Notes under the pieces: generated by a model
What the model was told of the DNA's origin: nothing
Seen by the model: the letters and a program-made list of their open reading frames with translations, nothing else
Database searches by the model: none
Assembly (NCBI GenBank): GCA_037128175.1
Contig: JBAXWY010000020.1
Span: 1 to 46,714, forward strand
Length of the DNA: 46,714 nt
DNA from: Methanothrix sp.
GTDB lineage: Archaea; Halobacteriota; Methanosarcinia; Methanotrichales; Methanotrichaceae
Direction: 5' to 3'
Part shown: in pieces, positions 5,782 to 24,918 of the stretch
Numbering within the stretch: the stretch's first letter is position 1
Layout: each line of letters opens with the position of its first letter
Made by a program: the position numbers and the translations under genes

Positions 5782-7470
5782 ATGTCGGAGAATAAGAGTT
5801 CCATTGAAGATGGAAATGACCTCATCCCAGCCAGCATGCTGGCCGCTTTCGCCTATTGTCCTCGGCTCTGCTACCTGCAGTTTGTGCAGGGCGAGTTTTT
5901 GGACAGCGCCGAGCTGGCCGACGGCAGATTCCAGCACCGTTGGATAGATGCGGAGCAGGACGCCGTGCCTGAGGACTTTGTGCCTTTCCACGCGAGATCC
6001 GTCTCGCTCTCCGCCCCGCAGGCGGGCGTGTGCTGCAAGATCGATCTTTTGGAGGGCGACGGCCAGGTCGTCACGCCGGTGGAGTACAAGCGGGGCGAGT
6101 CTCCCCGCGCGCCCGCGGGCCTGTACGAGCCACATCTGATGCAACTGGCCGCCCAGTGTCTGGCCCTGCGGGAGAACGATTTTTCCTGTGAAGAAGGAAT
6201 GGTCTACTTCATCCGCTCCAAAGAAAGGGTCCCGGTGAAGTTCGACGCCGCATTGATTGATCGAGCAAAGTCAATGCTAACGGAACTACGAAGCACTGTG
6301 GAGCGGGGCGAGATTCCCCCGCCCCTGCGTGGAAGCGTGCGTTGCGATCGCTGCTCATTGGCGGGCATCTGCCTGCCCGACGAGGCAAACCTCTTGCGAG
6401 AGATGGAGGCGGAAAATGCGCTGGTGGGCAAACCTGAGGAAGAGAAGATCAGAATGCTGCTTGCCTGCCGGGACGATCAAGTGCCGGTTTACGTGGTAGG
6501 CCAGGGCAAGACGGTGCGTAAGCGTGGAGAGCGTCTGGAGGTCTGGTCTTATGAAGAAGGCAAGGTGAGCGAAGCCCGGATCCGGGAGATATCCAAGGTT
6601 TGCCTTTACGGGGGTGCGGAGATCACAACTCCGGCCATGGTGGAGCTGATGCAGAGGAATGTGCCGGTGCTGCACTTCTCCCATGGCGGCTGGTTTCTTG
6701 GCATCTGTCAGGGCATGAGCCACAAGAATGTGCTTTTGCGCATCAAGCAATTCCAGTGGGCCGGTGATGAGGAGAAGTCGCTTTCCATTGCCCGGAAAAT
6801 CGTATCCGGAAAAATAGAGAACTGCAGGATTCTCCTGCGCAGAAATGACCCCGAGGTTCCTGCCGGGGTTCTGGAATCCATGGGGCGGCTCGTCGGCCGG
6901 GCGGAAGGCGCACCCAGCATGCAGAGTTTGCTGGGATTCGAGGGAGCGGCGGCGGAGGAATACTTTGGGCGCCTGGGCAGCATGCTCAAGAGCTCTTCGG
7001 GCTTCTCTTTCCAAAACAGGAATAAGAGGCCGCCCAGAGATCCGGTGAATACCGTCCTCTCCTACCTTTACGGCATCCTGGCCAAGGAGCTCTTCTCAAC
7101 AGTTCTGGCTGCGGGCTTTGATCCTTACCTTGGATTTTACCACCAGCCCAGGTACGGTCGACCGGCATTGGCTCTGGATATGATGGAGGAGTTCCGGCCA
7201 ATAATAGCGGATTCCACGGCGCTGACTCTCTTTAATAAAGATGAGCTGACAGAGAGTGATTTCATAAAGACTGGTATCGGCATATCGCTAACTCCTGAAG
7301 CTCGAAAAAAGGTTGTTGCAGGCTATGAGCGCCGGATGCAGATAGAGGTAATCCATCCCATCTTTGGCTATAAGGTGAGCAATCGAAGAGTGCTGGAAGT
7401 ACAGTCCCGGCTTTTGGCCAGGGTTCTTTCCGGCGAGATCAAGGAGTATCCGGCTTTCGTAACCAGGTGA
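5782..7470 (+). CDS. cas4-cas1: Cas4-Cas1 fusion (type I-G/I-U-like)
   Basis: Cas4 part: YCPR, KIDLLE..PVEYKRG, CDRCSLAGICLP Fe-S cysteines. Cas1 part: LLGFEGAAA, RNKRPPRDPVN, GFYH, LDMMEEFRP. Confidence 0.95.
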   Translation: MSENKSSIEDGNDLIPASMLAAFAYCPRLCYLQFVQGEFLDSAELADGRFQHRWIDAEQDAVPEDFVPFHARSVSLSAPQAGVCCKIDLLEGDGQVVTPVEYKRGESPRAPAGLYEPHLMQLAAQCLALRENDFSCEEGMVYFIRSKERVPVKFDAALIDRAKSMLTELRSTVERGEIPPPLRGSVRCDRCSLAGICLPDEANLLREMEAENALVGKPEEEKIRMLLACRDDQVPVYVVGQGKTVRKRGERLEVWSYEEGKVSEARIREISKVCLYGGAEITTPAMVELMQRNVPVLHFSHGGWFLGICQGMSHKNVLLRIKQFQWAGDEEKSLSIARKIVSGKIENCRILLRRNDPEVPAGVLESMGRLVGRAEGAPSMQSLLGFEGAAAEEYFGRLGSMLKSSSGFSFQNRNKRPPRDPVNTVLSYLYGILAKELFSTVLAAGFDPYLGFYHQPRYGRPALALDMMEEFRPIIADSTALTLFNKDELTESDFIKTGIGISLTPEARKKVVAGYERRMQIEVIHPIFGYKVSNRRVLEVQSRLLARVLSGEIKEYPAFVTR

Positions 7471-7476
7471 GTATTT

Positions 7477-7773
7477 ATGAGCGGACTGAATTGCTTTGTA
7501 GTGAGCTATGATATCATGGACAGAAAGAGGCTTTGTAAAGTTCATAAAGCCATGTTAGGATTCGGGCAGCCGGTCCACTATTCTGTTTTTCGCTGCGATC
7601 TCATTCCAAAAGGCCGGGTGGAAATGGTGGCTGTTCTTACCGAGCTGATCAAGATCGACGAGGATCGCATAATGATAATCGACATGGGTCCGACGGAAGG
7701 TGGAGTAGATGGTAGGATTGAGTTTCTGGGAGTGCACCATGAGGATAAAGAAGAGAAGTTTATTATAGTATGA
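7477..7773 (+). CDS. cas2: CRISPR-associated endonuclease Cas2
   Basis: VVSYDI, G-x-x-VHYSVFRC motifs; 98 aa; directly after cas1. Confidence 0.93.
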   Translation: MSGLNCFVVSYDIMDRKRLCKVHKAMLGFGQPVHYSVFRCDLIPKGRVEMVAVLTELIKIDEDRIMIIDMGPTEGGVDGRIEFLGVHHEDKEEKFIIV

Positions 7774-8023
7774 AGTTGTACAAACGCGCCAGTGGGTCCG
7801 GGAGGTAAATGGGCTATCAAGTGGTCCAGTATTACGAAAACTCCCGAGACGACATACGCACTTCTAAGATAATTACGTATAGTTGACGGTATGCTCGCGA
7901 AGCAAGAGCATATCGAATTCCTATCTTTGAATGCATAAACACTTGCAAAATTATTGTATAGTTAACAGAATGCTCGTAAATCGGCTTTTTTCCGATAGCA
8001 GTAAAGGCCGAAAAACGGCAGCT
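7774..8023 (+). promoter_or_regulatory. CRISPR leader
   Basis: Non-coding, AT-richer 250 bp between cas2 and the first repeat. Confidence 0.75.
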
Positions 8024-11000
8024 ATTTCCATGACTGAAAAGTCGTGGCTCAATTGAAACCTGAATTGCTTTTACAGCTCTCTTTAGGCCTTTCTCGGCAT
8101 TTCCATGACTGAAAAGTCGTGGCTCAATTGAAACGAGGTTACCGTCCCGATCAGGGATGGTCTGGAGATATTTCATTTCCATGACTGAAAAGTCGTGGCT
8201 CAATTGAAACCAGGAATCCAAGAGCTAAAATGAAAATCCCGAGCAAACAGATTTCCATGACTGAAAAGTCGTGGCTCAATTGAAACCCAACATTGTCGTT
8301 TTTCCTTCCTCTGTCGGTGTAATATTTCCATGACTGAAAAGTCGTGGCTCAATTGAAACAAGCTTTTGCTTTTGCTGCGGCGAGTTCAGCGGCCTTCATT
8401 TCCATGACTGAAAAGTCGTGGCTCAATTGAAACACAGCTGAAACTATTTCTGTCGGAGTTCCCAACTTTTATTTCCATGACTGAAAAGTCGTGGCTCAAT
8501 TGAAACCACTTTTGCTAGTCCGTTGAGTCTCATCAAAACCCCTATTTCCATGACTGAAAAGTCGTGGCTCAATTGAAACCAGGTATAAGTCGTTATCAAG
8601 TTCCGAGTTATTCGGTACTATTTCCATGACTGAAAAGTCGTGGCTCAATTGAAACGAACTGCTCCCGTTACAGGGTTAATGTATATTGTCTTATTTCCAT
8701 GACTGAAAAGTCGTGGCTCAATTGAAACCCTCCTTGTTACCGTAGGAGATCACGATTGCCTTGTATTTCCATGACTGAAAAGTCGTGGCTCAATTGAAAC
8801 CATTTGGTAAAGCTGGCATATTTGGAAGCGGTATTTTGATTTCCATGACTGAAAAGTCGTGGCTCAATTGAAACGTATATGATCCGAAGAACCCATTCAG
8901 AGAGTCCTGATCGATTTCCATGACTGAAAAGTCGTGGCTCAATTGAAACCCTTAGATGGATTAATAAACTCTTTTAGAAACGCCATCATTTCCATGACTG
9001 AAAAGTCGTGGCTCAATTGAAACTCTAGCATTGTTACGTTGATACGTGCTAGTGACACTAAATATTTCCATGACTGAAAAGTCGTGGCTCAATTGAAACA
9101 CCGCGTCATCGTAAGTGGCCTGTGTCTCGTCAATGTCATTTCCATGACTGAAAAGTCGTGGCTCAATTGAAACATTGAACCGCTTAGTTTTGTTGGCAAC
9201 GGTATATCGCCATTTCCATGACTGAAAAGTCGTGGCTCAATTGAAACGAAGGTTGGATCTAGGTCGCAAAGTAGGCCACCGCCTACATTTCCATGACTGA
9301 AAAGTCGTGGCTCAATTGAAACTGTAATAGCATGAAAACACCGATATATGCCATGAACACCGATTTCCATGACTGAAAAGTCGTGGCTCAATTGAAACCT
9401 ACCTTCTTATTAAGTACCATCTTTATACACCTCTCTATTTCCATGACTGAAAAGTCGTGGCTCAATTGAAACTTTTTTCCTGGCTGAATGAGCCAACGGA
9501 TTCTATTCCATTTCCATGACTGAAAAGTCGTGGCTCAATTGAAACTACACGCCATTAGATATTCTATCCAAGTCATTTAAAATCATATTTCCATGACTGA
9601 AAAGTCGTGGCTCAATTGAAACTGAAGGTGTCGAAATTGGTGTTGTATTCATCCATTGAATTTCCATGACTGAAAAGTCGTGGCTCAATTGAAACGATAT
9701 TAATGTTTTTGCGGAATTCATCGTAATCACCTTCAAGATTTCCATGACTGAAAAGTCGTGGCTCAATTGAAACGAATAATTTGTAATGTTCTTAGCTCTC
9801 TCATTCATATAATTTCCATGACTGAAAAGTCGTGGCTCAATTGAAACTTTAACATGGGATGACCTCCTAAATGCCCACATAATCATTTCCATGACTGAAA
9901 AGTCGTGGCTCAATTGAAACACCAATATTATATACTTCAAGTCTGTCCAACTTTTTGGATTTCCATGACTGAAAAGTCGTGGCTCAATTGAAACACTGCT
10001 GTCTTCATGTCTTTTACCTCTTTTCTATTAGCGTATTTCCATGACTGAAAAGTCGTGGCTCAATTGAAACTCCACATGTAGGCAATTAAATCTCTAGGGC
10101 TCATTTTTATTTCCATGACTGAAAAGTCGTGGCTCAATTGAAACCCAATATCCAATGTTGATTTTCGCAATTGTTTCTGCTGTATTTCCATGACTGAAAA
10201 GTCGTGGCTCAATTGAAACCCGGGAGTTGTTTCAAGCTTATTCGCAAGAACCTCGAAAATTTCCATGACTGAAAAGTCGTGGCTCAATTGAAACCCAATT
10301 GTAATCCTTGGTCAAATGTTTTGATATTGTGGCTATTTCCATGACTGAAAAGTCGTGGCTCAATTGAAACTTTCGGGATTGATATTATTTATCTCCCAAT
10401 TCCCAAATCATTTCCATGACTGAAAAGTCGTGGCTCAATTGAAACCCGAATACTGAAAGCACTGCGGCTATCACGACCAAGATTTCCATGACTGAAAAGT
10501 CGTGGCTCAATTGAAACGCAAAAGGAAAATGGCGCCGGGCATCTACTGATAGCTGGATTTCCATGACTGAAAAGTCGTGGCTCAATTGAAACCAGGCAAA
10601 GTACTATTGCCCCAGTCAAAATGCTTTCATTTCCATGACTGAAAAGTCGTGGCTCAATTGAAACTTTGGTTTCCGTTTTCTCTTGCCAGTTTTACGGTTT
10701 TAATTTCCATGACTGAAAAGTCGTGGCTCAATTGAAACAATTAACTTGGGTTAACATTTGGCTCACCTGTAACGAATATTTCCATGACTGAAAAGTCGTG
10801 GCTCAATTGAAACTCGACATACTGCAGAATTCGCGGCAGCGGCTTTTTGGGAATTTCCATGACTGAAAAGTCGTGGCTCAATTGAAACCCCAACACTTTC
10901 GTGCAATCCTACTCGGACGCCTGTATTTCCATGACTGAAAAGTCGTGGCTCAATTGAAACCCAAGGCGATTAAAGTACGTTTCATCCGTGTACGCAAAAT

Positions 11001-11927
11001 TTCCATGACGAAAAATCGTGGCTCAATTGAAACAAGTTGTTGAATTCTTCTATTGATACGTAGTCCTGTCATTTCCATGACTGAAAAGTCGTGGCTCAAT
11101 TGAAACTTGTACAACCTGTTTGTAGGTTGGCTGGGCAGCGTTTGCATTTCCATGACTGAAAAGTCGTGGCTCAATTGAAACGGGAGTATTTGTAGTCTAT
11201 GCCGTGACCACCTCCTGCTATTTCCATGACTGAAAAGTCGTGGCTCAATTGAAACGTAGCAGCTCTCGCCACCGCGCCGTTTGATCGATCCGATTTCCAT
11301 GACTGAAAAGTCGTGGCTCAATTGAAACCCGTCAAGGGAAGATGCGTCGAAAACTTCATAAGTTGATTTCCATGACTGAAAAGTCGTGGCTCAATTGAAA
11401 CCCTATAAAACCCAGGGAATGTGCTTTTTACCCAATGCCGCATTTCCATGACTGAAAAGTCGTGGCTCAATTGAAACGAGTTATTAGAGGGCTACTGGCG
11501 TCAACCTGGAACTGATTTCCATGACTGAAAAGTCGTGGCTCAATTGAAACGCGGAAATATTCCATAATCTGAGTTCCAGAGTCACGTAATTTCCATGACT
11601 GAAAAGTCGTGGCTCAATTGAAACACCAAGTGGGCTGTCTGCAAAGTTGGGCTTATCAATGATCTATTTCCATGACTGAAAAGTCGTGGCTCAATTGAAA
11701 CCTACTGGAAGAAGACCCTGGAAGAACTGCTGAACCTAGTCCATTTCCATGACTGAAAAGTCGTGGCTCAATTGAAACTTCCTCCGGACTCAATTGCCTC
11801 ACTTAGCTGTAGTCCTTATTTCCATGACTGAAAAGTCGTGGCTCAATTGAAACTAATTTACTACACCTAGTACGTCGTCATCATAGAACAGATTTCCATG
11901 ACTGAAAAGTCGTGGCTCAATTGAAAC
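8024..11927 (+). CRISPR. CRISPR array: 53 repeats and 52 spacers (36-42 nt); repeat ATTTCCATGACTGAAAAGTCGTGGCTCAATTGAAAC
   Basis: Repeats counted by hand. Hairpin CCATGAC/GTCGTGG; the 3' ATTGAAAC handle and leader position give + orientation. One variant repeat at 10999-11033. Confidence 0.98.
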
Positions 11928-12063
11928 GCCCATGCGCCCCGTCGGGGGCTCACACGTGGCGGATGGGAAACAAGATCTATCGACATTATGAATTCAGTTT
12001 TCCATGGGAAACTTTCGGAAAATGAGTATGTTCGATTTCCTTTGCTGGATAAAGTGCGGTCTC

Positions 12064-12428: not shown

Positions 12429-12782
12429 ATGCAGTCAAAAGCAAGACGTCCTGCAATAGAGAGAGCAAGGGACGCACGGCTGGAGAGGGGCGGCGATACC
12501 GATTATGAGCTATATGAACTGATTAGCGAACACTCTGGACAGGGCGCTTATGAGCTCTCTAAGCTGAATGGCTGGACTGCAGGCCGCACGCACTCATCAA
12601 TATTGCGATTGGAGAAAAAAGGGCTCGTATCTGTGGAGCGTATTGTGCAAGGTGGGAGGACAAAGCTTGTAGTTCGCCCCAGGCCCTGGCAGGAGTTCTT
12701 CACTCCAGAGGAGCTTGAAGAAATGCGCCAGCCCGGATACTTCGAGGAAGTCGAGAAAATGGTGAAGCGAACAGAGGGCTGA
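12429..12782 (+). CDS. winged-helix (MarR-like) regulator
   Basis: AYELSKLNGWTAGRTHSSILRLEKKGLV HTH plus wing; divergent from the 12064-12312 gene. Confidence 0.7.
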   Translation: MQSKARRPAIERARDARLERGGDTDYELYELISEHSGQGAYELSKLNGWTAGRTHSSILRLEKKGLVSVERIVQGGRTKLVVRPRPWQEFFTPEELEEMRQPGYFEEVEKMVKRTEG

Positions 12783-12898
12783 AGGTCCGCATAACTGCAC
12801 CCTCTCATTAAGGAGTAATAGATTCTTAAAATAGTAATAATAGATCTCTCGTCATTGCCTTTATGCTGCCTCTTCTGTACATGCTTGTAAAAACATGA

Positions 12899-14758
12899 TT
12901 ACTCGCCAAGGGACGATAGGATTTTCACCTCCACCTTTACCGGCACGGGATACAATAGCTCTGAGCCGATCCTTTCCATGATCTCTTGCAGCATTCGGGC
13001 ATATTCCTCCGCCCGCTCTGCCGGGACCTCCAGCAGAATTTCATCGTGAATGGAGCCGATTATCCTTGCCTCTTCTGAGGATATTTTATCGTAGACCTCG
13101 CACATCACCAGCTTGATGAGATCCGCTCCCGTTCCCTGGCAGGGAGTATTGTACATCTGGAATTTGGAAGCCCTAATTCCGGTTCCAAAGCGCGGCCAGA
13201 TCCTTCTGCGGCCTAAAGCCGTAGCGGTGCAGGTGAGCGGCAGGAAAAAGTATCCCTGAATGCAGTTGTGGAAGTAGTGCAGCACGGTGTAACTCATCTC
13301 TTGAAGCTGCCGCTCCTGCCAAACTCTAACTCCCTCATAAGTTTGGAAGAACCGGGTCTTTGCCTCCTCTGCCTCATCCAGAGACATGAATCTCCCGTAA
13401 TCGGACAAAACCCGCCACTGCAATGTCTTGGCCGATCCGCCGTAGATGAGCAGGAAGTTCATGATCTTCGCCGCCTGACGTTGCTGGTCCGTCACCTGAC
13501 TCATGTCGGCGCCACTGATTTTGCAGGCGGTTAGCCTGTGCAGGTCAACTCCCGCCCGAAATGCTTCCTGCATGGCCCTGTCCCCAGAAAGAAATGCCAT
13601 GATGCGTAGCTCAATCGCAGAGAAATCGGCCTTAACAAACCTCTTCCCGGCCTCTGGCAAGAAGAGCCTCCTTATGGCTGTGGCATCGTCCCCCTTCCTG
13701 GGAATCTGCTGGGCATTGGGATTTTTGGAACTGATTCTGCCGGTGGAGGATGGGATCTGGAAATAATGAGGATGGACCCGGCCATCTTTGGCATGAACAT
13801 GGCTTAGCCAGTTACTCAGAAATGCTAGAAGGTGAGATACATGCCTGTAACGAAGGACCGCTTCGGCAAAAGCACAGCCTGCGGCGGCCAGACCCCTCAA
13901 GATCTCTGCCTTGGTGCTGATTACACCGTAGCCCCGGCTCTTCAAAAAGGCCAAAACATCTTCCTGCCGGTCGGGATTTAGATAATAACTCAGTCTTTTG
14001 CCGTCCTCTGAAACTGTGACGAAACCTTTTCTTCTGGCCTCATCATGCACCGTCCAGACCAGATTGCAGATCTCATTTTCTTCGTCCTCGACTTTTCTTT
14101 TGGCCTGATCAGAGTCCAGATAAATACCCGAGATCTCCATCTCCGCCAGGGAGCAAACGGCTCTAAATTCCAGATCTGCAATCTTCTGCAAGCCGTTTTT
14201 AGCCAGGAGTGCTGCCAGGATGTCGTGAAGCGGTAATAGTACGGCGGATTCTTCTGCAGCTCTCCTTTCCGTCTCATTTTCACCGTCCAGGATAACGCCC
14301 AGATGCCTTTCCGCCAGGGCAGCAAGACTATGATCGGGAATATTCTTCTTCCAGGGATTTTTGGGGGAATGAGAGGGGGTAAGATAATAGTAGCCCGACC
14401 AGCAGATCTCTGAAGCAAGCATGAGGTCGAATAGATTGCGGGCATCCAGCTTTCGATTCTCCGAGGTCCTGATGAAAGCGAGGGCAGTCTTGGCATCGAA
14501 TAAAACTTTCCTGATCCGGATGTTCTCCAGGAGCCCGGCCAAATCGCTCAGAATAGTCTTTCCCAGTTCAAGGCAGTCGGCAATGTAGACGGTATGATTG
14601 GGGAGCGCGAGGGTTATAAGCCTGATTTCATGGCTCAAGGGGTCCGGGCCGGTCTTGAGCAGGTTCAAACCGCAAATCCCAAATTTCTCGATCTCTTGAA
14701 GCGCAGATTCCCATGATTCCGCTGTGGTAATGCAGGTTAACAGAGGGCTGATCGTCAT
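12899..14758 (-). CDS. polA: family A DNA polymerase (Klenow-like: degenerate 3'-5' exonuclease fold plus polymerase, no 5' nuclease)
   Basis: STGRISSKNPNAQQIP; motif A ADFSAIELRIMA; motif B RQAAKIMNFLLIYG; NTPCQGTGADLIK; motif C IHDEIL. Confidence 0.92.
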   Translation of the reverse strand: MTISPLLTCITTAESWESALQEIEKFGICGLNLLKTGPDPLSHEIRLITLALPNHTVYIADCLELGKTILSDLAGLLENIRIRKVLFDAKTALAFIRTSENRKLDARNLFDLMLASEICWSGYYYLTPSHSPKNPWKKNIPDHSLAALAERHLGVILDGENETERRAAEESAVLLPLHDILAALLAKNGLQKIADLEFRAVCSLAEMEISGIYLDSDQAKRKVEDEENEICNLVWTVHDEARRKGFVTVSEDGKRLSYYLNPDRQEDVLAFLKSRGYGVISTKAEILRGLAAAGCAFAEAVLRYRHVSHLLAFLSNWLSHVHAKDGRVHPHYFQIPSSTGRISSKNPNAQQIPRKGDDATAIRRLFLPEAGKRFVKADFSAIELRIMAFLSGDRAMQEAFRAGVDLHRLTACKISGADMSQVTDQQRQAAKIMNFLLIYGGSAKTLQWRVLSDYGRFMSLDEAEEAKTRFFQTYEGVRVWQERQLQEMSYTVLHYFHNCIQGYFFLPLTCTATALGRRRIWPRFGTGIRASKFQMYNTPCQGTGADLIKLVMCEVYDKISSEEARIIGSIHDEILLEVPAERAEEYARMLQEIMERIGSELLYPVPVKVEVKILSSLGE

Positions 14759-14890: not shown

Positions 14891-15442
14891 ATGGATCTCT
14901 TTGACCTTCTTGGTAAATTCGCTAATATTGTGCAGCTCATAATGTTCTGCGTGTTTGTTTGGGCGACCGTAACCTTGCTCATAGCCAGAAAGAGGATAGA
15001 GCGAAAATTGAATTTGCTGGAAAAAGATGAGAAAAGCGTTCGATCAAAACGTCGCATCGCCATTGTTATTGGGGTCGGGAAGAACCCCCTGGCCTCTGTG
15101 GAAAAGTTCTTGGCGGATAATAACTTGGCAGACATTCCTATCATAAACTGGATCTCGGACGGATTTTTGCAGGCCGGGGATTACACGGCAGCAATGGCAG
15201 AGATCAATGATCTGCGCAGCCAGGCATTGAAGCTCGGCGTCAGTGAAGTACTGCTGTTCTACGCGGGACCCATCGACCTGGCCATGTTTATCGGAGCCAG
15301 CTTCAGTGACTGGGTGCCGATAAGAGTCTATGCCTTTACAGACACCGGAACTTACCAGCACAGGGTCACAGTGGGAAGGGAAGCGGCCAGATTATGCACT
15401 ATGACCGACGAACTGGTCAAAGGATTGGAAGGAAAGTTATAA
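14891..15442 (+). CDS. single-TM protein with SAVED/CARF-like C-terminal domain; candidate cyclic-oligoadenylate-sensing membrane effector
   Basis: N-terminal hydrophobic helix followed by a basic stretch. EVLLFYAGPIDLAMFIGASF...IRVYAF...GTY resembles the SAVED C-terminal motif. Located in a type III locus. Confidence 0.55.
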   Translation: MDLFDLLGKFANIVQLIMFCVFVWATVTLLIARKRIERKLNLLEKDEKSVRSKRRIAIVIGVGKNPLASVEKFLADNNLADIPIINWISDGFLQAGDYTAAMAEINDLRSQALKLGVSEVLLFYAGPIDLAMFIGASFSDWVPIRVYAFTDTGTYQHRVTVGREAARLCTMTDELVKGLEGKL

Positions 15443-17149: not shown

Positions 17150-17312
17150 ACTTGTGCCGGTTTCAAGGCGTGAGCTGATCAGGCGATTGAGTAAATTGGG
17201 ATCTGTTGGTCCTTATCCTGGTGCAGATCATGAATATATGTCCCGGGGATTGGTAGAGACGCGCATTCCCAATCCTCATGGCCTTGCCTCTTCTGAGGAT
17301 ATTTTATCGTAG
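17139..17312 (+). pseudogene. hicA: HicA-family toxin truncated by a polA fragment
   Basis: PVSRRELIRRLSKLG..GPYPGADHEYM...IPNPHG; the sequence switches to a polA copy at 17282, removing the C-terminal helices. Confidence 0.75.
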
Positions 17313-17399
17313 ACCTCGCACATCACCAGCTTGATGAGGTCTGCACCCGTTCCCTGGCAGGGAGTATTGTACATCTGGAATTTGGATGCCCGGATTCCG
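17282..17399 (-). pseudogene. 118-bp relic of a second polA copy
   Basis: 112/118 identical to 13064-13181; all 6 differences are synonymous in the polA frame. Confidence 0.92.
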
Positions 17400-17665
17400 C
17401 ATCCAAGCCACAAATAGTCAGCTTAATAATAAAATATGAGATGTTATTTCTAAATTTTTAATATATATTACGCAATAAAAAGCTTTATCTATATGCAAAT
17501 ATATCTCTTGTGGAGGAGGGAAATTGAGCTGTGTGAAATCCCCGTTGAATTCAGCGTCGCGTCATTCTGTGTGGAAAATATGGACAGAACGCTCAGTTTT
17601 TCTTTGAATGCATCAGTAGGCATTGTCTTGACATTATCGTTATCGTCTTTTTGCGGGGCGAGACG

Positions 17666-18454
17666 ATGCCGATAAGACCTACTGTTGCTCGCTTTGCAGT
17701 GGCGAGCAAGAATTCCCCGCAACTTACCGATACCATAATTTTGGCGGATCGCGTCCACGCCGCTCTGGTCAGCCTCTCCAATGGCTCACGCATATTTACG
17801 GGATGTGACGAGCAGGGAAGACCATTGCAGGGCAACAGGCATGCGCATGTCTTCTGCGAATCCAATAATGCATTGGCAAAGGGCATTGATGGTGAGATCA
17901 CTCACATCACCATTTATGCTCCGGCGGGCTTTGAATCTGAGGATCAGAGGGCTGTGCAGGATCTGGATAGAGTCTGGGGTGGAGATGACCTTAAGATCCA
18001 GGTGATTCTGCAGGGATTCGGCCAACCGCAGGACTTTGGGGGCATAGATCTGGAGCGCGGCCAGTGCCCATTGCTGGCCCGCTCCCGCGCCTGGGTCTCT
18101 CGCACGCCTTTCCTGCCCACGCGCCATCCCAAAGTCACGCGGGCGGGCGTGCTAAAGCGGGACGCGAGCGGCCTGCAGATCGGAAGTAGCGAGCACGAGC
18201 TGAGACGGCTGCTGGGGCTGGCAGGCTTTCCTGAACCGGTTCTAGTGGAAAAGGTGGCCGGCACGAGCCTGGGCGGTCGGAACATTCCGTGGCATGCCTT
18301 CCTTCGCCGGAGAGAGACTGGCAAGGGAAGGCCGGCGGCGAATGGTGCAGGCTACGGCTTTAGGATAGAGTTTCCTCTGGCGGTGCAGGGGCCGCTGGCC
18401 GTCGGATATGCGAGCCACTTTGGGATGGGGGGATTTTATAATGGACAAGAATAA
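17666..18454 (+). CDS. csb2: stand-alone Cas6-like C-terminal domain of type I-G Csb2
   Basis: GRPLQGNRHAHVF, SRAWVSRTPF and C-terminal RAMP G-loop GPLAVGYASHFGMGGF; about half the length of full Csb2. Confidence 0.8.
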   Translation: MPIRPTVARFAVASKNSPQLTDTIILADRVHAALVSLSNGSRIFTGCDEQGRPLQGNRHAHVFCESNNALAKGIDGEITHITIYAPAGFESEDQRAVQDLDRVWGGDDLKIQVILQGFGQPQDFGGIDLERGQCPLLARSRAWVSRTPFLPTRHPKVTRAGVLKRDASGLQIGSSEHELRRLLGLAGFPEPVLVEKVAGTSLGGRNIPWHAFLRRRETGKGRPAANGAGYGFRIEFPLAVQGPLAVGYASHFGMGGFYNGQE

Positions 18455-19281: not shown

Positions 19282-20517
19282 ATGATTGAGAAGCTCTACA
19301 ATATTCAGGTAATTACGCCGATATTCGGTGGTGGTGTCAAAGCCAACGAGAACGATCCTGTGACACCGATCAGGCCTTCAAGCATTCGAGGGCATCTCAG
19401 ATTCTGGTGGAGGGCAACGAGTGGTGCGAAATGCGCAACTGTTGCCGAGCTTCTACAAAGAGAGGGTAAGATATGGGGGACGACGTTGAATCCCAGTCAG
19501 GTTGGATTGCAGGTTGAAATAAAATCACCAGGAAAAACATACCCGTGTGCTTATTTCCCGGAAAACAAGAACTTTCCTCGGTTCGAAAGAAACCATCCAC
19601 CCTATGCGCTCTTTCCATTCCAAGGGAATAAAAGGGATGGCATTCCTCCAGCCAACTGTACATCCAATGTTTCTTTTGAATTGAAACTGAATCATCCAAA
19701 AAGCTTATCTCAGGATGTAGATGCTGCCGTTTGGGCCTGGACAAATTTTGGCGGAATAGGTGCCAGAGTGAGGCGTGGCTGCGGTGCGTTGTACTGCAAG
19801 GAGCTTTCCCCTAGGAGAGAATCACTAAATTCATGGTACAGATCATCCCTAGAGGGCTTTGGTGTTGAGTTATCCCGCTTGCAGGATTGGCCAACTCTTC
19901 CGGATAGATTCCTCGTCCAAGATAATAATAGTAACAATGTATTGCAGGGATGGACAGATGTGGTGGGCCTCATGCAGACCTTCAGGCAGGGCCAAGGCGT
20001 AGGCAGAAATCCTGGATCAAGCCCAAATCGGCCCGGTCGCTCCCGCTGGCCCGAGCCGGAATCAATAAGGAAGGCTACTGGCAGCAGATTCTTACGGCAC
20101 TCAAGGATGCCTGCAATCCCTGATGATGCCTTCCCCAGAGCAGAGCTAGGGCTGCCAATTGTATTTCACTTTAAGGATAATGATGATCCCAAGGATACTG
20201 AGCTATACCCGGTAGTCAGGGGAGAGGAGAAAACAAGAATGGCAAGTCCTCTGATCTTGAGGCCGATGATTTGCAGAAATGGAGAAGTAATTCAATTGAT
20301 TCTCAAGCTAAAATCCTCTTCTCCTGATGAAGTAGTGCTCAAAAAGGCATCAGGAAGTCCACGCTTCAAAAAATTGCGAGATCCTGCGCTGGCCAACTAT
20401 CCAAACTCACCCCTTGGCAGTCTGAAGGCTGGAGCACCAGCCCGCTCGTCATCAGGATCTGCTCTTGAAGGTTTCCTTGCCTTTGCAAAAGAATATGGAT
20501 TTGTAGAGGTGAACTAA
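19282..20517 (+). CDS. cmr1: type III-B RAMP Cmr1
   Basis: ITPIFGGG, IRPSSIRGHLRFWWRA, FGGIGARVRRGCG, RAELGLPIVFHF, RMASPLILRP. Confidence 0.93.
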   Translation: MIEKLYNIQVITPIFGGGVKANENDPVTPIRPSSIRGHLRFWWRATSGAKCATVAELLQREGKIWGTTLNPSQVGLQVEIKSPGKTYPCAYFPENKNFPRFERNHPPYALFPFQGNKRDGIPPANCTSNVSFELKLNHPKSLSQDVDAAVWAWTNFGGIGARVRRGCGALYCKELSPRRESLNSWYRSSLEGFGVELSRLQDWPTLPDRFLVQDNNSNNVLQGWTDVVGLMQTFRQGQGVGRNPGSSPNRPGRSRWPEPESIRKATGSRFLRHSRMPAIPDDAFPRAELGLPIVFHFKDNDDPKDTELYPVVRGEEKTRMASPLILRPMICRNGEVIQLILKLKSSSPDEVVLKKASGSPRFKKLRDPALANYPNSPLGSLKAGAPARSSSGSALEGFLAFAKEYGFVEVN

Positions 20518-22421
20518 TGGCATCGTATCTTTATGTTCTATCAATAGGGCCTGTTCAGGACTTCATCGTTGCTGCTCGGCGAACCAAAGACTTATGGTAT
20601 GGATCTTATCTTCTCTCCGTCATCAGTAAGGCCGCAGCAAGGGAAATTTCTCATTTAGGGGGATATCTGATATTTCCTGGACTTGATAAAAGAGATTTTC
20701 GATTGGAGTCCCTGGAAAGCGACTTTAGCGTAGCCAATGTTATTCTGGCAAGATTGCCTGACGGATGCGAAAGCCCGGAAGTAATCAATGAAAAAGCGCA
20801 GGATGCTGCCAAGAGAGTATGGATTGATCTGGCCGAAAAGGCAAAGAAGGAAGCTGGAAAGCTTGTTCGCCAGGATAAAATAGGGCAGGATATCTGGAAT
20901 GACCAGGTTGATGATGCAATCGAATTTTATGCAGCCTGGGTTCCAGAAGGTGTTAGCTACGATCGCATGAAAGTAATGCGGCTATTGGCAGGCAGGAAAT
21001 CAATCAGGAACTTCAGGCAGCCCAAGGGCTTTTTTGGCATTCCCAAATCATCTCTTGATGGTGCCAGGGAGAGCGTTATTCAAAGAGATAAAGCTCTTCC
21101 CAAATGGCTTTCTATGAAATTGCGCTTGAGTGATGCAGAGCAGCTCTGTGCCGTTGGACTGACCAAACGACTTGGCAGACGGCCGGACGGCAAAAATGCA
21201 GTATTTCCATCAGTCGTTCGAGTAGCTGCCGATCCGTGGATTCGAGGAATCAGAAGGCATCCTGGCGACAAAGCCAATAGGATTCTTGATGAGATAGAGG
21301 CTTGCTGCCGTGAAGGTGAAAACAGTTTTTCGACTGGCATAGGAGATAGGCTTTATCAAGAGTTCCGCTCGGACGGACATATTCTATATCCATCTCGCCT
21401 GGCCAGAGCTAAAGAGGATCTCAATGATATCTTAGATCAGGATGAAGACAACCCCTATATAGATGATCTCGTTAAGCTGGATCGAATTGAAAAAGCTGTC
21501 AATCAGCTGCAGAAAAAAGATGATGGCGGCCTGGGACTTGGTGAGCCTAACCAGTATCTAGCTGTATTGAAAGCGGATGGAGATCGCATGGGAAAAGCTC
21601 TTTTCACCATTGATTCAGTCGACAATCATAGAGCCTTTTCAGGGCTGCTTGCAGAGTTCGCGTCCGATGCAAAAAGAATAGTAGAAGAAGAGTATCACGG
21701 ATGTATGGTCTTCTCTGGCGGAGATGATGTCTTAGCTTTCTTGCCTTTAGATACCTGCCTTGGTGCAGCCAGAGCTCTTCATGATGGATTTAGAGAAAAA
21801 GGAGAAAAACTGACTGCACTTCAGGGCTATAGTTGCAGTCCATTAACGCTATCTGTTGGAATTGCCATCGGACATTACTTGGAGCCGCTGGAAAACCTGC
21901 TTAATTTCGGAAATGAGGCTGAGAAGGCCGCAAAAGATGGACGAGATGCTCAAGATGAAAGAGACGGCCTTGCCGTTCATATCTATCCACGGAGTGGTGC
22001 TCCCATAAAGATCAGAGAAAAATGGCTGCCCGAGAAGGCAAACGGCCTGGATGAACGTCTGCGCAAATGGGCTAAAATGCATTGCGAAAACAAGCTGCCA
22101 GATAGTGCTGCCTATGAAATGCGAGAATTAGCAGAGGATTACAAGGACTGGAAAACATCCTCAAAAGATGAGGAGGATAAGCTGAGAGATCTTATCGCTT
22201 CTGACGCATTAAGGCTTTTAAAACGAAAAACCGGCATCCTAGGACCGGCTCAGCTCCAAAAAGAAGACCTCAAAGGAATGTTGATGAATGCAGAGCCGTA
22301 CCAAGCAATCAGCAGAATGGCTTCAGAGCTCATCCTCGCTCGGAGGATTGCAGTTGCCATGAAACAGGCTGGAGATGAGAAATCGCCTAAGCAGGTAAGG
22401 CAAACTCAGGAGGTCGCTTAA
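20517..22421 (+). CDS. cmr2: Cas10/Cmr2, lacking HD domain, cyclase motif intact
   Basis: Starts SIGPVQDFIVAARRTKDLWYGSYLLS; LKADGDRMG; FSGGDDVLAFL. Confidence 0.95.
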   Translation: MASYLYVLSIGPVQDFIVAARRTKDLWYGSYLLSVISKAAAREISHLGGYLIFPGLDKRDFRLESLESDFSVANVILARLPDGCESPEVINEKAQDAAKRVWIDLAEKAKKEAGKLVRQDKIGQDIWNDQVDDAIEFYAAWVPEGVSYDRMKVMRLLAGRKSIRNFRQPKGFFGIPKSSLDGARESVIQRDKALPKWLSMKLRLSDAEQLCAVGLTKRLGRRPDGKNAVFPSVVRVAADPWIRGIRRHPGDKANRILDEIEACCREGENSFSTGIGDRLYQEFRSDGHILYPSRLARAKEDLNDILDQDEDNPYIDDLVKLDRIEKAVNQLQKKDDGGLGLGEPNQYLAVLKADGDRMGKALFTIDSVDNHRAFSGLLAEFASDAKRIVEEEYHGCMVFSGGDDVLAFLPLDTCLGAARALHDGFREKGEKLTALQGYSCSPLTLSVGIAIGHYLEPLENLLNFGNEAEKAAKDGRDAQDERDGLAVHIYPRSGAPIKIREKWLPEKANGLDERLRKWAKMHCENKLPDSAAYEMRELAEDYKDWKTSSKDEEDKLRDLIASDALRLLKRKTGILGPAQLQKEDLKGMLMNAEPYQAISRMASELILARRIAVAMKQAGDEKSPKQVRQTQEVA

Positions 22422-23656
22422 TGGTGCTTTATCTTAAAATAACTGCCCATGATCCGCTTATCGCCAGAGATGGTCGCCCGTTTGGCCTGGGAATCCGAAT
22501 GAAATCTCTAGATTGGCTCTATCCATCAGTTCTTGCCGGTTCCTTTAGAACTATGCTGGGAAATGCATGCAACAGCAATTTCGATGAGAAGACTTCTGAG
22601 GATTTAAAGCGGATTTCTATATCAGGTCCATTGCCATTCTGGCAGGGCAAACTCTATGTCCCGCAGCCGAAAGATCTTCTGGTCAAGGAAGAAAACAAGA
22701 AACGAGAACTCAATGCATTTGCTATTCGACCTGTGAATATTAATGGAAATGATTGGAGAGATTGTGGCTGCGATCTTCCAACGGGAGGGTTATATCCAGC
22801 AATGCTGCCCGGCAGTGTTGATGGCGAGTTTAAGCCCGCCAAAACTCCATTGCTCTGGTCGATGGAAACCATGAAGAAATGGCTGGCAAACGCTAGAGGT
22901 GAGGGCTTTCAATCTCCGCCCGATCCGGAGAAAATTTCGGGTAGAACTGACTTCTTGAATCTGCCTAAAAAAGAAGCTAGGACTCATGTCAAGATCGATC
23001 CAAAGGTCGGAACATCCGAAGATGCCAAGCTCTTCGAAACCATCGGGCTTGATTTCACTATCAAGGGCCAGGAAGAAAAAATCGAGCTTGTTGCCAGGGT
23101 TGAAGACGAAGGAAAATATGCAGATATTGCATCAAAGATCGATTCACTCAACTCTATCGGAGGAGAGAGGAGACTGGCCAGATGGAAGGCGCTCAAGTCC
23201 CAGGAGGGATGGACCTTCCCACTGGATTTAGCTTCTGATTTTTCCGGCAAGAAGAAAGTGCGTATGGTTTTAGCGACCCCAGCTATCTTTTCGGATGGAT
23301 GGGAGCCAGGATGGCTTAAAGACTGGCCACCGAATGAAGAGCCCGATTATTGGCCTAATGGATTGAAGCTGAGGCTCGTATCGGCATGCATAGATCGCTG
23401 GAAGGCGGTCTCCGGATGGAGCCTGGAGAAAAACAAGAACCGAGGCCCGGGCCCGAAGCGCATTAGAAGACTTGTGCCTGCCGGCTCAGTTTACTTCTTC
23501 GAGATTGATGGGGATCTGGATGCTGCATCTATTGCCAAAGACCTTTGGCTGAGATCGGTCTGCGATAACGATCAAGACCGACGTGATGGATTCGGCCTGG
23601 CTTTATGGGGCATTTGGGATTATGCAAACGAAAAGATGATAATAAAGCAGGATTAG
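22421..23656 (+). CDS. cmr3: type III-B Cmr3
   Basis: DPLIARDGRPF, IGGERR, LATPAIF, VPAGSVYFF, DGFGLALWG. Confidence 0.93.
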   Translation: MVLYLKITAHDPLIARDGRPFGLGIRMKSLDWLYPSVLAGSFRTMLGNACNSNFDEKTSEDLKRISISGPLPFWQGKLYVPQPKDLLVKEENKKRELNAFAIRPVNINGNDWRDCGCDLPTGGLYPAMLPGSVDGEFKPAKTPLLWSMETMKKWLANARGEGFQSPPDPEKISGRTDFLNLPKKEARTHVKIDPKVGTSEDAKLFETIGLDFTIKGQEEKIELVARVEDEGKYADIASKIDSLNSIGGERRLARWKALKSQEGWTFPLDLASDFSGKKKVRMVLATPAIFSDGWEPGWLKDWPPNEEPDYWPNGLKLRLVSACIDRWKAVSGWSLEKNKNRGPGPKRIRRLVPAGSVYFFEIDGDLDAASIAKDLWLRSVCDNDQDRRDGFGLALWGIWDYANEKMIIKQD

Positions 23657-23669
23657 GAGGTGCAAGATC

Positions 23670-24566
23670 ATGGAGAATAACACTAGAATGTACTGGTTGC
23701 AGACGATAACGCCTTTGCACGTTGGAGCCGGAAAAGGAGTTGGATTTATAGATATGCCTATCATGAGGGAGAAGGTCACAGATTGGCCGCTGGTTCCCGG
23801 CTCGGCAGCAAAGGGCGTGTTGAGAGATCACTTCTCCCAGAACGGAAATGATGAACAGAAGAAACTGATAGATGTCGCCTTTGGAAAACAGATCGTGGAT
23901 GACTCATCCAATGCAGGTTCTTTGATTCTCACCGATGCTCACATCGTCTGCCTGCCTGTGAGGAGCCTCTATGGAACATTCGCTTACATCACCAGCCCGC
24001 TGGTTTTAGAGAGGCTAAAAAGAGATCTCGAAGCGGCAGGCTACAATGACCTTCCTCCAACCCATAGTCCTGCAAGAGACGAAGTCTTGTTAGCGAATGG
24101 ATCGAAGATTTCCGGTGAAGAACGGGTTTTCTTTGAAGATCTGGATTTCAAGGCAAAGGAAGATGAAAATGCCCAGAAGTGGGCGGAAATGCTGGCAGGA
24201 GTAATCTTTCCTAAGGAATTAGCCAAAGATGCGGTCTGGAAAGGCATCTTTGAAGAGAGGTTTGCAATCCTATCTGATGATTGTTTCAACTTCCTGTCAA
24301 AGACTGGCACCGAAGTGACGGCGCACATCAGGATTGAAGATGATACGAAAATTGTGTCCAAGGGTGCACTCTGGTATGAGGAGGCCCTTCCTGCGGAGGC
24401 GATACTTGCAGGGATCGCCTGGTGCGACAGAGTTTTCGGCGGCAATGGGATAACCCGGAGCAAAATATTGGAAACATACTGCACGAAGGATAAGTTGGAC
24501 CTGCAGATGGGTGGAAAAGCAACCGTCGGCAAAGGCCGGGTTAGGTGTCAGTTCAGGAGGAGCTAG
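23670..24566 (+). CDS. cmr4: type III-B Cmr4 (Cas7-family RNase backbone)
   Basis: TPLHVGAG, IDMPIMRE (catalytic Asp), LWYEEALP, QMGGKATVGKG. Confidence 0.95.
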   Translation: MENNTRMYWLQTITPLHVGAGKGVGFIDMPIMREKVTDWPLVPGSAAKGVLRDHFSQNGNDEQKKLIDVAFGKQIVDDSSNAGSLILTDAHIVCLPVRSLYGTFAYITSPLVLERLKRDLEAAGYNDLPPTHSPARDEVLLANGSKISGEERVFFEDLDFKAKEDENAQKWAEMLAGVIFPKELAKDAVWKGIFEERFAILSDDCFNFLSKTGTEVTAHIRIEDDTKIVSKGALWYEEALPAEAILAGIAWCDRVFGGNGITRSKILETYCTKDKLDLQMGGKATVGKGRVRCQFRRS

Positions 24567-24570
24567 GACT

Positions 24571-24918
24571 ATGGACGAGAAGCATCAAACCCGACAGCAA
24601 AAGAGGGCGCAGAAAGCTTATGACTGTATTCTCTCCCGAGGCAAAACTGATGAAGAATATAGCCAGCTTGCTAGGAGATTTCCGGCCCTGGTGCAATCCT
24701 GCGGGCTGGCCCAGGCTCTGGCCTTTGTGGCGGCAAAGGAAGGGCAAACAGGAAGAGATTACATCGCTCATATCTCCCAGGTTATGAATGAGAAAGGAGA
24801 CTTGGGCGAGTCCAGCAGAAAATCGGATCTTATGAAATATCAACGGCTAACTTATGAGGCCATTGAGTCTGCAACCTGGCTCAAGCGCTACTCTGAGGCA
24901 CTACTGGAGACTGATTGA
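24571..24918 (+). CDS. cmr5: type III-B small subunit Cmr5
   Basis: QQKRAQKAY, FPALVQSCGLAQALAF, WLKRYSEA; ATG at 24571 chosen over the longer overlapping ORF. Confidence 0.92.
   Translation: MDEKHQTRQQKRAQKAYDCILSRGKTDEEYSQLARRFPALVQSCGLAQALAFVAAKEGQTGRDYIAHISQVMNEKGDLGESSRKSDLMKYQRLTYEAIESATWLKRYSEALLETD

Follow-up and report, generated by a model that had tools for sequence, protein, structure and literature searches.

A family A DNA polymerase with a degraded proofreading site accompanies type I-G-like CRISPR adaptation genes in Methanotrichaceae

Examination of a 46,714-nucleotide stretch of Methanothrix sp. DNA (contig JBAXWY010000020.1, hereafter the window) revealed a gene for a family A DNA polymerase, here called polA-C, beside a CRISPR array. 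The window genome is archaeal and Methanothrix-like and carries the PolD large subunit; a relic aside, polA-C is its only match to the family A profile PF00476. The array, whose trailer end points at the 3′ end of polA-C, and the genes around it are arranged as follows.

5782..7470, + strand: cas4g-cas1g fusion of type I-G adaptation (NF049935, 690.9 bits, cut-off 560; Pfam Cas1 and Cas4)
7477..7773, + strand: cas2 (TIGR01573, 3.3e-07)
8022..11928, + strand: CRISPR array, 53 copies of a 36-nt repeat; repeat end on the + strand ...ATTGAAAC
~11996-12030, beyond the array: degenerate repeat-like stretch, read by eye
12429..12782, + strand: 117-aa ORF between array and polA, no family match; by eye small and winged-helix-like
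12899..14758, − strand: polA-C, ATG-start ORF of 619 aa; family A DNA polymerase lacking a 5′ nuclease, its N-terminal domain exonuclease-dead
12899..14188, − strand: polymerase domain, residues 191-619 (Pfam match and motifs)
13034-13057, − strand: motif C, GSIHDEIL, intact
13436-13480, − strand: motif B, RQAAKIMNFLLIYGG, intact
13601-13633, − strand: motif A, KADFSAIELRI, intact
14189..14758, − strand: exonuclease-like 3′-5′ domain, residues 1-190; catalytic residues of ExoI, ExoII and ExoIII replaced
14891..15442, + strand: SAVED-like gene, 183 aa (PF18145, 1.7e-08; NF033611, 1.3e-10)
17282..17413, − strand: relic of a second polA-C copy, ~44 codons; 125 nt with 93.6% identity to codons ~520-565
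17651..18454, + strand: 267-aa protein with a match to the C-terminal half of type I-G Csb2 (Cas5/Cas6 fusion)
19282-26108, + strand: type III-B genes cmr1, cas10/cmr2, cmr3, cmr4, cmr5 and cmr6 (profile matches)
26105-27355, + strand: Card1-like CARF nuclease/effector, after cmr6

Together with MNT and HicB-like genes, the III-B, Card1 and SAVED genes make the locus a defence island, and no reverse transcriptase (RT) gene was found in it. A first-pass annotation of the sequence had placed the polymerase gene between the array and cmr and had noticed the second-copy relic in the same island, and both placements hold. It had also described a candidate sensor gene head-to-head with polA; this geometry is correct for the SAVED-like gene in the window (132 bp apart), but the gene is not a constant partner of polA, being kept in other loci usually upstream of cas4-cas1. 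At the position of the 117-aa ORF, relatives carry a different ORF of 132 aa (c9), for which we found no Pfam family, no Atlas match and no similarity to the window's ORF, and the 267-aa Csb2-half protein is conserved at the same size upstream of cmr in relatives. One run search found four metatranscriptome runs from three studies, each covering small shares of the window. Their contigs over the small ORF (12441-12793) are short, with 0-9 differences; the pieces over polA (12898-13173, 13246-13477 and 13642-14090) are mostly 90-95% alike and so derive from relatives. Such contigs, coming from RNA libraries, may include DNA and give neither strand nor level.

The polA-C product belongs to family A: PF00476 covers residues 273-614 (7.6e-78) at 262.5 bits against a cut-off of 34.3, the catalytic pattern A (D..E), B (R..K...F/Y..YG) and C (HDE) is present, and alignment bears out the earlier statement that all three motifs are intact. 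It scores below the thresholds for bacterial DNA polymerase I (TIGR00593, 296.6 against 720 bits; NF004397, 254.4 against 600), and the NCBIfam Pol I alignments begin at model position 301 or 381; because these models align only from position 301 on, the protein is without a 5′ nuclease, as had been claimed. The top NCBIfam model is NF011539, 'bifunctional 3'-5' exonuclease/DNA polymerase' (PRK14975 group), to which polA-C aligns end to end despite a score of 370.1 bits, below the cut-off of 640. An AlphaFold2 model (pLDDT 91.9) has a Klenow-like fold in Foldseek comparisons, with TM scores of 0.83 to the apicoplast polymerase apPOL (9qsc) and 0.80 to Klenow, and the closest sequence match is likewise the apicoplast polymerase group (2.6e-55). 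The PADLOC model 'RTasPolA' matches the protein at 1.7e-32, which we take as general PolA homology.

The N-terminal domain retains only a weak match to the 3′-5′ exonuclease family (PF01612, 8.7e-07, residues 36-165), and the DEDD exonuclease residues of the NF011539 group (ExoI DxE, ExoII, ExoIII YxxxD) are absent. Alignment with exonuclease-proficient relatives confirmed the replaced acidic residues that had been reported from the sequence: ExoI reads CGLNLLKTG instead of CGLDLETTG (N.L for D.E), ExoII VLFDAKTAL instead of V(G/I)HNxKF(D/E)L, and ExoIII RRAAEESA, with a deletion, instead of YAAxDA. Two aromatic-rich segments that had been singled out as unusual inserts do exist (residues 123-138 and 493-508) and form beta-hairpins in the AlphaFold model, but by consensus both are common to the whole family, relatives on mobile elements included, and are therefore no peculiarity of the window gene.

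To place polA-C among its relatives, we built a tree of 86 rows (quick IQ-TREE), in which 80 non-redundant relatives form two sister clades (SH-aLRT 99 and 98): clade M, with 38 rows, and clade C, with 42 rows including the window (10 basal and 32 crown). Clade M is carried by a mobile element: a DUF3854/DUF927 primase-helicase precedes polA in 27 of 29 loci with 1.5 kb or more upstream, there is a tyrosine integrase in the vicinity, and an array was found within 2 kb in 0 of 26 loci. One locus (L120) has a clade M element at a distance of 3 kb from an array unrelated to it. The surroundings of clade C are different, with the primase-helicase found in none of the 42 rows. Where 2 kb or more of downstream sequence was available, 22 of 25 loci have a CRISPR array no more than 2 kb past the stop codon of polA, always convergent and at distances of 15-1926 bp. 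The cas2 and cas4g-cas1g genes lie on the far side of these arrays, and cas4-cas1 was found there, on the opposite strand, in 13 of the 16 loci with at least 7 kb of flank. All 26 of 26 clade C arrays belong to one repeat family and share one orientation relative to polA. Some loci have arrays on both sides of polA.

This neighbourhood of array and cas genes is conserved across diverged genomes, in loci that span several genera. Identity to the window is uncoupled between partners (polA against cas4-cas1: 83% against 59% in L102, 56% against 82% in L114), so that partners have been exchanged while the neighbourhood endured. The first-pass annotation had named close homologs mostly without cas linkage as the result that would speak against it; the outcome was the opposite, with arrays beside 22 of 25.

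Loss of proofreading residues follows the same division of the tree. Clade M keeps its exonuclease motifs in 38/38 rows; in clade C, 10/10 basal rows have lost one or more of the exonuclease catalytic residues, by differing substitutions, and ExoI DxE is absent in 32/32 crown rows. Motifs A, B and C, on the other hand, are essentially intact in 80/80 rows, with catalytic residues unchanged and conservative variation elsewhere. In the clade C crown, pairwise dN/dS has a median of 0.147 in the polymerase domain and 0.257 in the exonuclease-like one, similar to clade M (0.191 and 0.248), and divergence within clade C extends down to 48-58% identity. The gene is thus under purifying selection, and the earlier interpretation is partly borne out: at the level of genomic association, the results support a PolA linked to CRISPR. 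Many otherwise comparable modules are without PolA.

A second, distant lineage, PolA-2 (about 31-35% identity to the window protein), forms a clade apart from C and M and is also linked to the adaptation genes: 16 of 20 matches lie no farther than 1.5 kb from cas4-cas1, 15 of them head-to-head. His replaces the first Asp of ExoI in 42 of the 45 rows covering that motif, and the ExoIII Asp is absent in 54 of 57. The PolA-2 crown is exonuclease-dead, whereas three basal proteins (P0177, P0188 and P0189) are exonuclease-proficient; these three were not found among species representatives (best 43% identity). The CRISPR link represents two evolutionary events, clade C and PolA-2, rather than 42 independent ones. 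Tentatively, and on slightly less than an even chance, the two lineages may be independent recruitments of Methanotrichaceae mobile-element family A polymerases to Cas4g-Cas1g/Cas2, each having lost proofreading and become a dedicated 'Cas polymerase' that would complete integration by duplicated-repeat synthesis or make prespacers, possibly from RNA for III-B.

Any polA match occurs in 43 of 101 genomes of the host family, a patchy distribution, and decay is frequent: 16 rows are short or split, and relics occur in the window, L229 and L257. Among 20 further cas4g-cas1g loci, chosen because no PolA lies on their contig, 18 had no PolA in the stretch examined, one carried the start of PolA-2 and one had relics only; PolA is absent from most of this sample of the subtype and is neither universal nor constant among cas4g-cas1g adaptation modules. 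In G047, a genome that is 99% complete, clade C polA is intact and there is no cas4-cas1 match; IS110 and DDE transposases occupy the place expected for the array. Outside the polA-C family, archaeal PolA is not linked to Cas1 (in family f8, PolA is present in 19/24 genomes and Cas1 in 2/24). IMG/VR scans for a viral origin gave no close relative, the best matches having 34% identity (family alignment) and 30% (P0189).

These patterns bear on two readings in which polA-C plays no part in CRISPR. The gene could be a hitch-hiking relic, the last survivor of an element that integrated beside the array trailer and decayed, kept by inheritance and inter-array recombination; a sister clade carried by a mobile element, the element near an unrelated array in L120, the frequent pseudogenes and relics, the many modules without PolA and the retention of polA without a module in G047 all fit such a history. 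We nevertheless regard it as unlikely, as dN/dS of 0.15 to 0.26 holds across 42 rows down to 48-58% identity, the polymerase motifs stayed essentially intact in all 80 rows while exonuclease residues were lost in parallel, and PolA-2 has its own, independent link to these adaptation genes. A general host repair or translesion polymerase that is merely near CRISPR is very improbable: exonuclease-dead family A enzymes do function in eukaryotic repair, and G047 has the gene without the module, but the patchy occurrence, the frequent decay and the strict array adjacency (22/25) all speak against this.

The closest kin of polA-C being the replicative polymerase of an element, and the locus being a defence island, a stand-alone role against mobile elements was also considered, in which the captured polymerase would disturb replication of related elements independently of spacer acquisition, for instance through contact with their primase-helicase or primed DNA. 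Lost proofreading would suit such poisoning. A decoy, however, would need no catalytic motifs, and A, B and C are essentially intact throughout; the fixed array geometry and the head-to-head placement of PolA-2 with cas4-cas1 suggest a link with the adaptation module and not with defence islands at large. Searching 804 spacers (740 unique, from 43 loci) against all loci of the set and the window genome, with arrays masked, gave 0 matches, so that none of the 740 hit the elements in the locus set. We consider this role improbable.

The array feeds a Cmr complex at a locus without an RT, and the nearest solved structure belongs to the apicoplast polymerase group, a viral relative of which has reverse transcriptase activity. 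A proofreading-free PolA might accordingly reverse-transcribe invader RNA into prespacers for III-B, as RT-Cas1 fusions do. This seems a long shot, as the sequence bears no sign that RNA serves as a template, ordinary DNA polymerases have the same steric-gate Glu and motif B Phe/Tyr, and the adaptation module is type I-G, which in studied cases acquires from DNA.

We favour a different reading, to which we give a probability of roughly one half: polA-C would descend from a mobile-element polymerase and now serve, without proofreading, as an accessory to a type I-G-like adaptation module supplying type III-B. Its source would be an integrative mobile element of Methanotrichaceae whose replication module comprises integrase, primase-helicase and an exonuclease-proficient PolA; one lineage of this polymerase would have settled at the trailer, the promoter-distal end, of arrays served by Cas4g-Cas1g/Cas2. 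That lineage has lost the proofreading active site, with the polymerase active site and fold kept under purifying selection. The family and domain state of the protein, its descent beside a mobile-element clade, the conserved surroundings and the selection are direct results of the analysis; that polA-C acts in adaptation, and at which step, we infer. Its likeliest job would be short, non-proofread DNA synthesis, probably to fill the two gaps of single-stranded repeat that remain once Cas1-Cas2 has integrated a spacer; alternatively, it may make prespacer DNA double-stranded. Integration takes place at the leader and polA lies at the trailer, and its position therefore gives no mechanistic hint. 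Complex prediction for the Cas1 domain (residues 225-562 of Cas4-Cas1) with full-length PolA scored 0.00, which makes no call either way.

Archaea, to our knowledge, lack Pol I, and we know of no enzyme established as the repeat-gap filler after Cas1-Cas2 integration in any archaeon, the step being known in bacteria only genetically. Passages of a study in E. coli (PMC4678826) describe that deletion of polA abolishes both naive and primed adaptation; DNA polymerase I, a family A enzyme like polA-C, is needed there for its synthesis activity, and the authors propose that it fills the repeat gaps. The E. coli enzyme is a housekeeping polymerase with a 5′ nuclease and active proofreading and is not encoded with cas genes, whereas polA-C is archaeal, is encoded at the array and is predicted to have neither nuclease activity.

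Other known polymerases share parts of this description. The apPOL/Prex enzyme of the Plasmodium apicoplast and the plasmid and viral NF011539 enzymes have the same exonuclease and polymerase architecture without a 5′ nuclease, but they proofread, whereas polA-C naturally lacks the exonuclease residues and falls below the NCBIfam cut-off; the solved apPOL entries are, by their titles, engineered exonuclease-minus mutants. A retained, inactive exonuclease-like domain is found in Pol theta and Pol nu, family A enzymes of eukaryotic repair. RT-Cas1 fusions and CRISPR-associated primase-polymerases are likewise polymerases recruited to adaptation modules; they use RT and AEP folds, unrelated to PolA, and polA-C has neither an RT (RVT) nor an AEP domain (PF00476 and PF01612 only, in Pfam) and no Cas1 fusion. 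Casposons also bring a Cas1-family integrase together with the polymerase of a mobile element. They are self-synthesizing transposons with solo Cas1, a family B polymerase, terminal inverted repeats and no array, and we rejected a casposon at this locus because a real 53-repeat array with cas2 and cas4 is present; the polymerase, moreover, is family A.

Large-scale clustering has linked polymerase genes to adaptation modules (PMC10910872, 2023); the main text names neither polymerase family nor organisms, AEP, PrimPol, Toprim and RVT appear in the legend, and these modules may overlap with the systems reported here. Our literature search found no paper whose main text describes an archaeal PolA linked to CRISPR, and the main texts of the Shmakov preprint (10.1101/270033) and of Shah et al. 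(PMC6546367) hold no such passage.

A polymerase gene physically tied to an adaptation module, a tie we accept because of the sister mobile-element clade, the parallel loss of proofreading and the purifying selection on the polymerase, offers a direct handle on the gap-filling step. If our reading is correct, the missing polymerase step of CRISPR adaptation would be named in an archaeon, and polA-C would clearly illustrate how a replication gene of a mobile element can become an immune accessory of its host, bringing a fourth polymerase fold to CRISPR systems, after the Cas10 palm, RT and PrimPol. The finding also shows archaeal family A polymerases to be more than mere transfer debris.

The open reading frame at 12899-14758 (minus strand) is intact and encodes a 619-residue protein, PolA, with a Pfam DNA_pol_A match (7.6e-78) and a weak match to the 3′-5′ exonuclease domain (8.7e-07). 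Alignments to NCBIfam Pol I models start at about model position 300, which means that a 5′ nuclease is absent; the best model, NF011539 ("bifunctional 3′-5′ exonuclease/DNA polymerase"), aligns end to end but stays below its cut-off (370 bits, cut-off 640). Plasmodium apicoplast polymerase entries are the closest solved structures by sequence (2.6e-55), and they are also the best fold matches (TM 0.83), ahead of the Klenow, Aquifex, and Bst enzymes, for a confident AlphaFold2 model built from a 67-row alignment (pLDDT 91.9, pTM 0.90). Score relative to the family cut-off, motifs, and fold place the protein among the family A polymerases, and the Pfam and NCBIfam alignments together with a motif comparison confirm the first-pass annotation in describing an intact member without a 5′ nuclease. 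Identity as a bacterial Pol I was rejected (no 5′ nuclease, score below cut-off), membership of the bifunctional family failed on score and exonuclease residues, and the protein is not a reverse transcriptase, PrimPol, or casposon polymerase. The genome is archaeal, as judged from its PolD large subunit and from the named relatives of the protein, which are Methanothrix and Methanotrichaceae MAGs; apart from polA, PF00476 matches this genome only at a short relic, also inside the window.

PolA lies in a CRISPR island with housekeeping genes on both flanks.

Features of the CRISPR island
5782-7470: cas4g-cas1g (NF049935, above cut-off)
7477-7773: cas2
8022-11928: CRISPR array, 53 repeat copies
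12429-12782: 117-aa winged-helix-like ORF between array and polA, on the strand opposite to polA
12899-14758 (-): polA
14891-15442 (+): SAVED-like gene, 183 aa, divergent from polA
after the SAVED-like gene: several small genes
17282-17413: polA relic, 125 nt, 93.6% identical to the intact copy
17651-18454 (+): 267-aa match to the C-terminal half of Csb2
beside the 267-aa gene, before cmr1-6: nucleotidyltransferase
island end: cmr1-6, then a Card1-like CARF nuclease (26105-27355, +)

The relic of a second polA copy, noted on first pass, was recovered in the same island. On the plus strand the array repeat terminates in ATTGAAAC; crRNA handles are usually 8 nt long, and reading this end as such a handle has the array transcribed from the cas2 side toward polA. 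Past the last repeat on the polA side we read a degenerate repeat-like stretch by eye, which together with the array direction puts polA at the array's trailer in convergent orientation.

Of 101 Methanotrichaceae species genomes searched, 43, from 9 of 16 genera, gave PolA matches, many of them split or truncated. Loci were collected as 20-kb stretches around 20 of these matches, as a set of 45 from all species genomes, and as a set of 80 from metagenome contigs. Gene context was scored in 117 loci (L101-L136, L146-L225, and the window); L137-L145 are distant matches, two of which served solely as outgroups. After leaving out 16 rows with a PolA ORF below 560 aa, 21 near-duplicates (at least 97% identity), and one 1564-aa viral row, a quick IQ-TREE run (SH-aLRT only) on 80 family rows and 6 outgroup rows resolved two sister clades (supports 99 and 98), here called C and M.

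Clade C (42 rows, window included) is linked to CRISPR arrays. Among loci with at least 2 kb downstream, an array lies 15-1926 bp from the polA stop in 22 of 25; of the other three, L148 has its array 2.7 kb away, L106 has one on the upstream side at 450 bp, and L162 lacks one. Where at least 7 kb is available, cas4-cas1 lies past the array on the opposite strand in 13 of 16. The 26 arrays observed beside clade C genes all have repeats of one family, in a single orientation with respect to polA (18 recognised by script from a GTTTC start; the other 8, cut short or starting with GCTTC, by eye from the shared core). Genes on the other side of polA vary between loci. The CRISPR association proposed for this PolA is borne out as real and specific. 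In five loci (L112, L172, L110, L106, L226), arrays that share a repeat family flank the polymerase gene on either side. A 132-aa ORF without a family match, c9, sits between array trailer and polA in either orientation (L034:8078-8476, with homologs in ~17 loci); it is absent from the window, where the unrelated 117-aa ORF takes its place.

Clade M (38 rows) is linked to mobile elements. Of the 29 loci whose upstream flank spans at least 1.5 kb, 27 have a homolog of a 919-aa DUF3854/DUF927 protein directly upstream, a primase-helicase found in none of the 42 clade C rows. Several loci also carry genes for a tyrosine integrase and a small HTH protein. No array was found within 2 kb in any of 26 loci with at least 2 kb downstream; one locus has an unrelated array at 3 kb. 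Some contigs carry a bin label of Chloroflexota, Leptolinea, Omnitrophota, or Methanoregula, which fits either a mobile element or mis-binning. The element reads tyrosine integrase, small HTH gene, primase-helicase (~919 aa), 105-aa gene, and exonuclease-proficient PolA (L043-L047, L117-L124, L177-L225); it also occurs on contigs labelled Methanothrix, and no close relative was found in IMG/VR. Separately, a 1197-aa fusion of a D5_N/DUF5906 (D5-like) primase-helicase with an exonuclease-proficient PolA (L239:6715-10308, G071:C3) adjoins an integrase and a TnpB/Cas12f-like gene.

Motifs compared across all 80 family rows separate the clades. ExoI (DxE), ExoII, and ExoIII (YxxxD) are kept in 38/38 clade M rows. 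All 10 basal clade C rows lack at least one catalytic exonuclease residue, through different substitutions (four retain DxE without the ExoIII Asp or Tyr; others lack the ExoI Asp or Glu), and DxE is missing from 32/32 crown rows, most with an ExoIII deletion. In 80/80 rows the polymerase motifs (A, B, and C) are essentially preserved, with catalytic residues unchanged and conservative variation elsewhere. The earlier description of replaced exonuclease residues beside intact polymerase motifs holds. The two aromatic-rich inserts, by contrast, had been called unusual; they form hairpins in the AlphaFold2 model and are conserved in clades C and M, that is, they are family traits.

One rival reading takes polA for a hitch-hiking relic, and polA decay is frequent in the family. 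Pairwise dN/dS in the crown of clade C has a median of 0.147 across the polymerase domain and 0.257 across the exonuclease-like domain, compared with 0.191 and 0.248 in clade M; intact genes are thus under purifying selection, the dead exonuclease domain included. Identities to the window are also incongruent between polA and cas4-cas1 (83% and 59% in L102, 56% and 82% in L114), so the neighbourhood has outlived partner exchange, perhaps via recombination between arrays, which counts against simple inertia. Continuing constraint suggests that the exonuclease-like domain keeps a structural or binding role, and parallel losses in several sub-lineages suggest that proofreading is useless or harmful in the new role.

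Setting a cas4-cas1 search against the PolA table revealed weaker PolA matches (32-39% identity, ~590 aa) adjoining cas4-cas1. This lineage, PolA-2, is 31% identical to the window protein, and its named homologs are Methanothrix and Methanotrichaceae only, down to 41% identity. Sixteen of 20 matches lie within 1.5 kb of cas4-cas1 on the same contig, 15 of them head-to-head; the remainder comprises one 1197-aa fusion, one 811-aa frame, and a pair of fragments. In the loci retrieved as examples the order is PolA-2 (-), cas4-cas1 (+), cas2 (+), array, and at two loci an array adjoins the 3′ end of PolA-2. In an unrooted 49-row quick tree (LG+G4), PolA-2 forms its own clade, apart from C+M and from bacterial and plasmid enzymes, with C still sister to M. 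His replaces the first ExoI Asp in 42 of the 45 rows (of 57) covering the motif, only the three most basal proteins retain DxE and YxxxD, and motif C reads HDS instead of HDE in 57/57. With basal exonuclease-proficient and module-adjacent exonuclease-dead forms in both, the two lineages follow the same pattern. They have occupied the same CRISPR modules: L229 (G019:C1) has PolA-2 on the cas4-cas1 side of an array whose trailer adjoins a clade C relic, and in L257 (G079:C45) two clade C relics flank cas2 and cas4-cas1.

PolA is not universal among cas4g-cas1g modules. Within the stretches examined around 20 further cas4g-cas1g loci, none was seen in 18; one has a PolA-2 start at a contig end and one clade C relics only. 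In G047 (99% complete) the clade C gene is intact, cas4-cas1 has no match, and two transposase genes occupy the position expected for the array. Further rival readings are a stand-alone anti-element function and a general repair role. PolA occurs in 37 of 401 genomes of the phylum, and in f8, another archaeal family of that phylum, a near-universal PolA of 590-690 aa is found in 19/24 genomes and Cas1 in 2/24; a CRISPR link is therefore no general property of archaeal PolA. The association described here comes down to two evolutionary events rather than dozens of independent ones.

The arrays next to clade C polA, served by a type I-G-like adaptation module, feed a type III-B effector. Because the Card1-like CARF endonuclease directly follows cmr6, the III-B system probably signals via cyclic oligoadenylate. 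The 183-aa protein matches only the C-terminal part of SAVED and is conserved in size (also L102, L103, L174, L172, L259); its gene is divergent from polA in the window lineage and just upstream of cas4-cas1 elsewhere, as if the module were circularly permuted. A possible role is that of a small cyclic-oligonucleotide sensor associated with the adaptation genes. The stand-alone 267-aa protein, homologous to the Cas6-like C-terminal half of type I-G Csb2 and found at this length immediately before cmr in several loci, may carry out crRNA processing for Cmr in a locus that combines I-G adaptation with a III-B effector. An RNA-templated prespacer role for PolA is another rival reading.

The window's PolA is a family A polymerase of mobile-element descent, proofreading-dead and to all appearances catalytically competent, which selection maintains at array ends. 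Cas1-Cas2 integration leaves the repeat as two single-stranded gaps. Archaea are not known to have a Pol I, and we infer that PolA would supply short-patch DNA synthesis in adaptation, filling these repeat gaps; over 36-nt patches, proofreading is dispensable. In E. coli, loss of Pol I polymerase activity is reported to abolish naive and primed acquisition, with gap filling proposed (PMC4678826). We consider the reading of PolA as a polymerase for adaptation plausible, with a probability of about one in two. Literature searches and the main text of two systematic surveys yielded no account of a CRISPR-linked PolA from an archaeon. Altae-Tran et al. mention adaptation modules linked to polymerases, with the polymerase family left unnamed in their main text; their supplements may already list this PolA. 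In function, PolA resembles the accessory polymerases of adaptation modules, and in its proposed and plausible role it would bring a new fold family to them.
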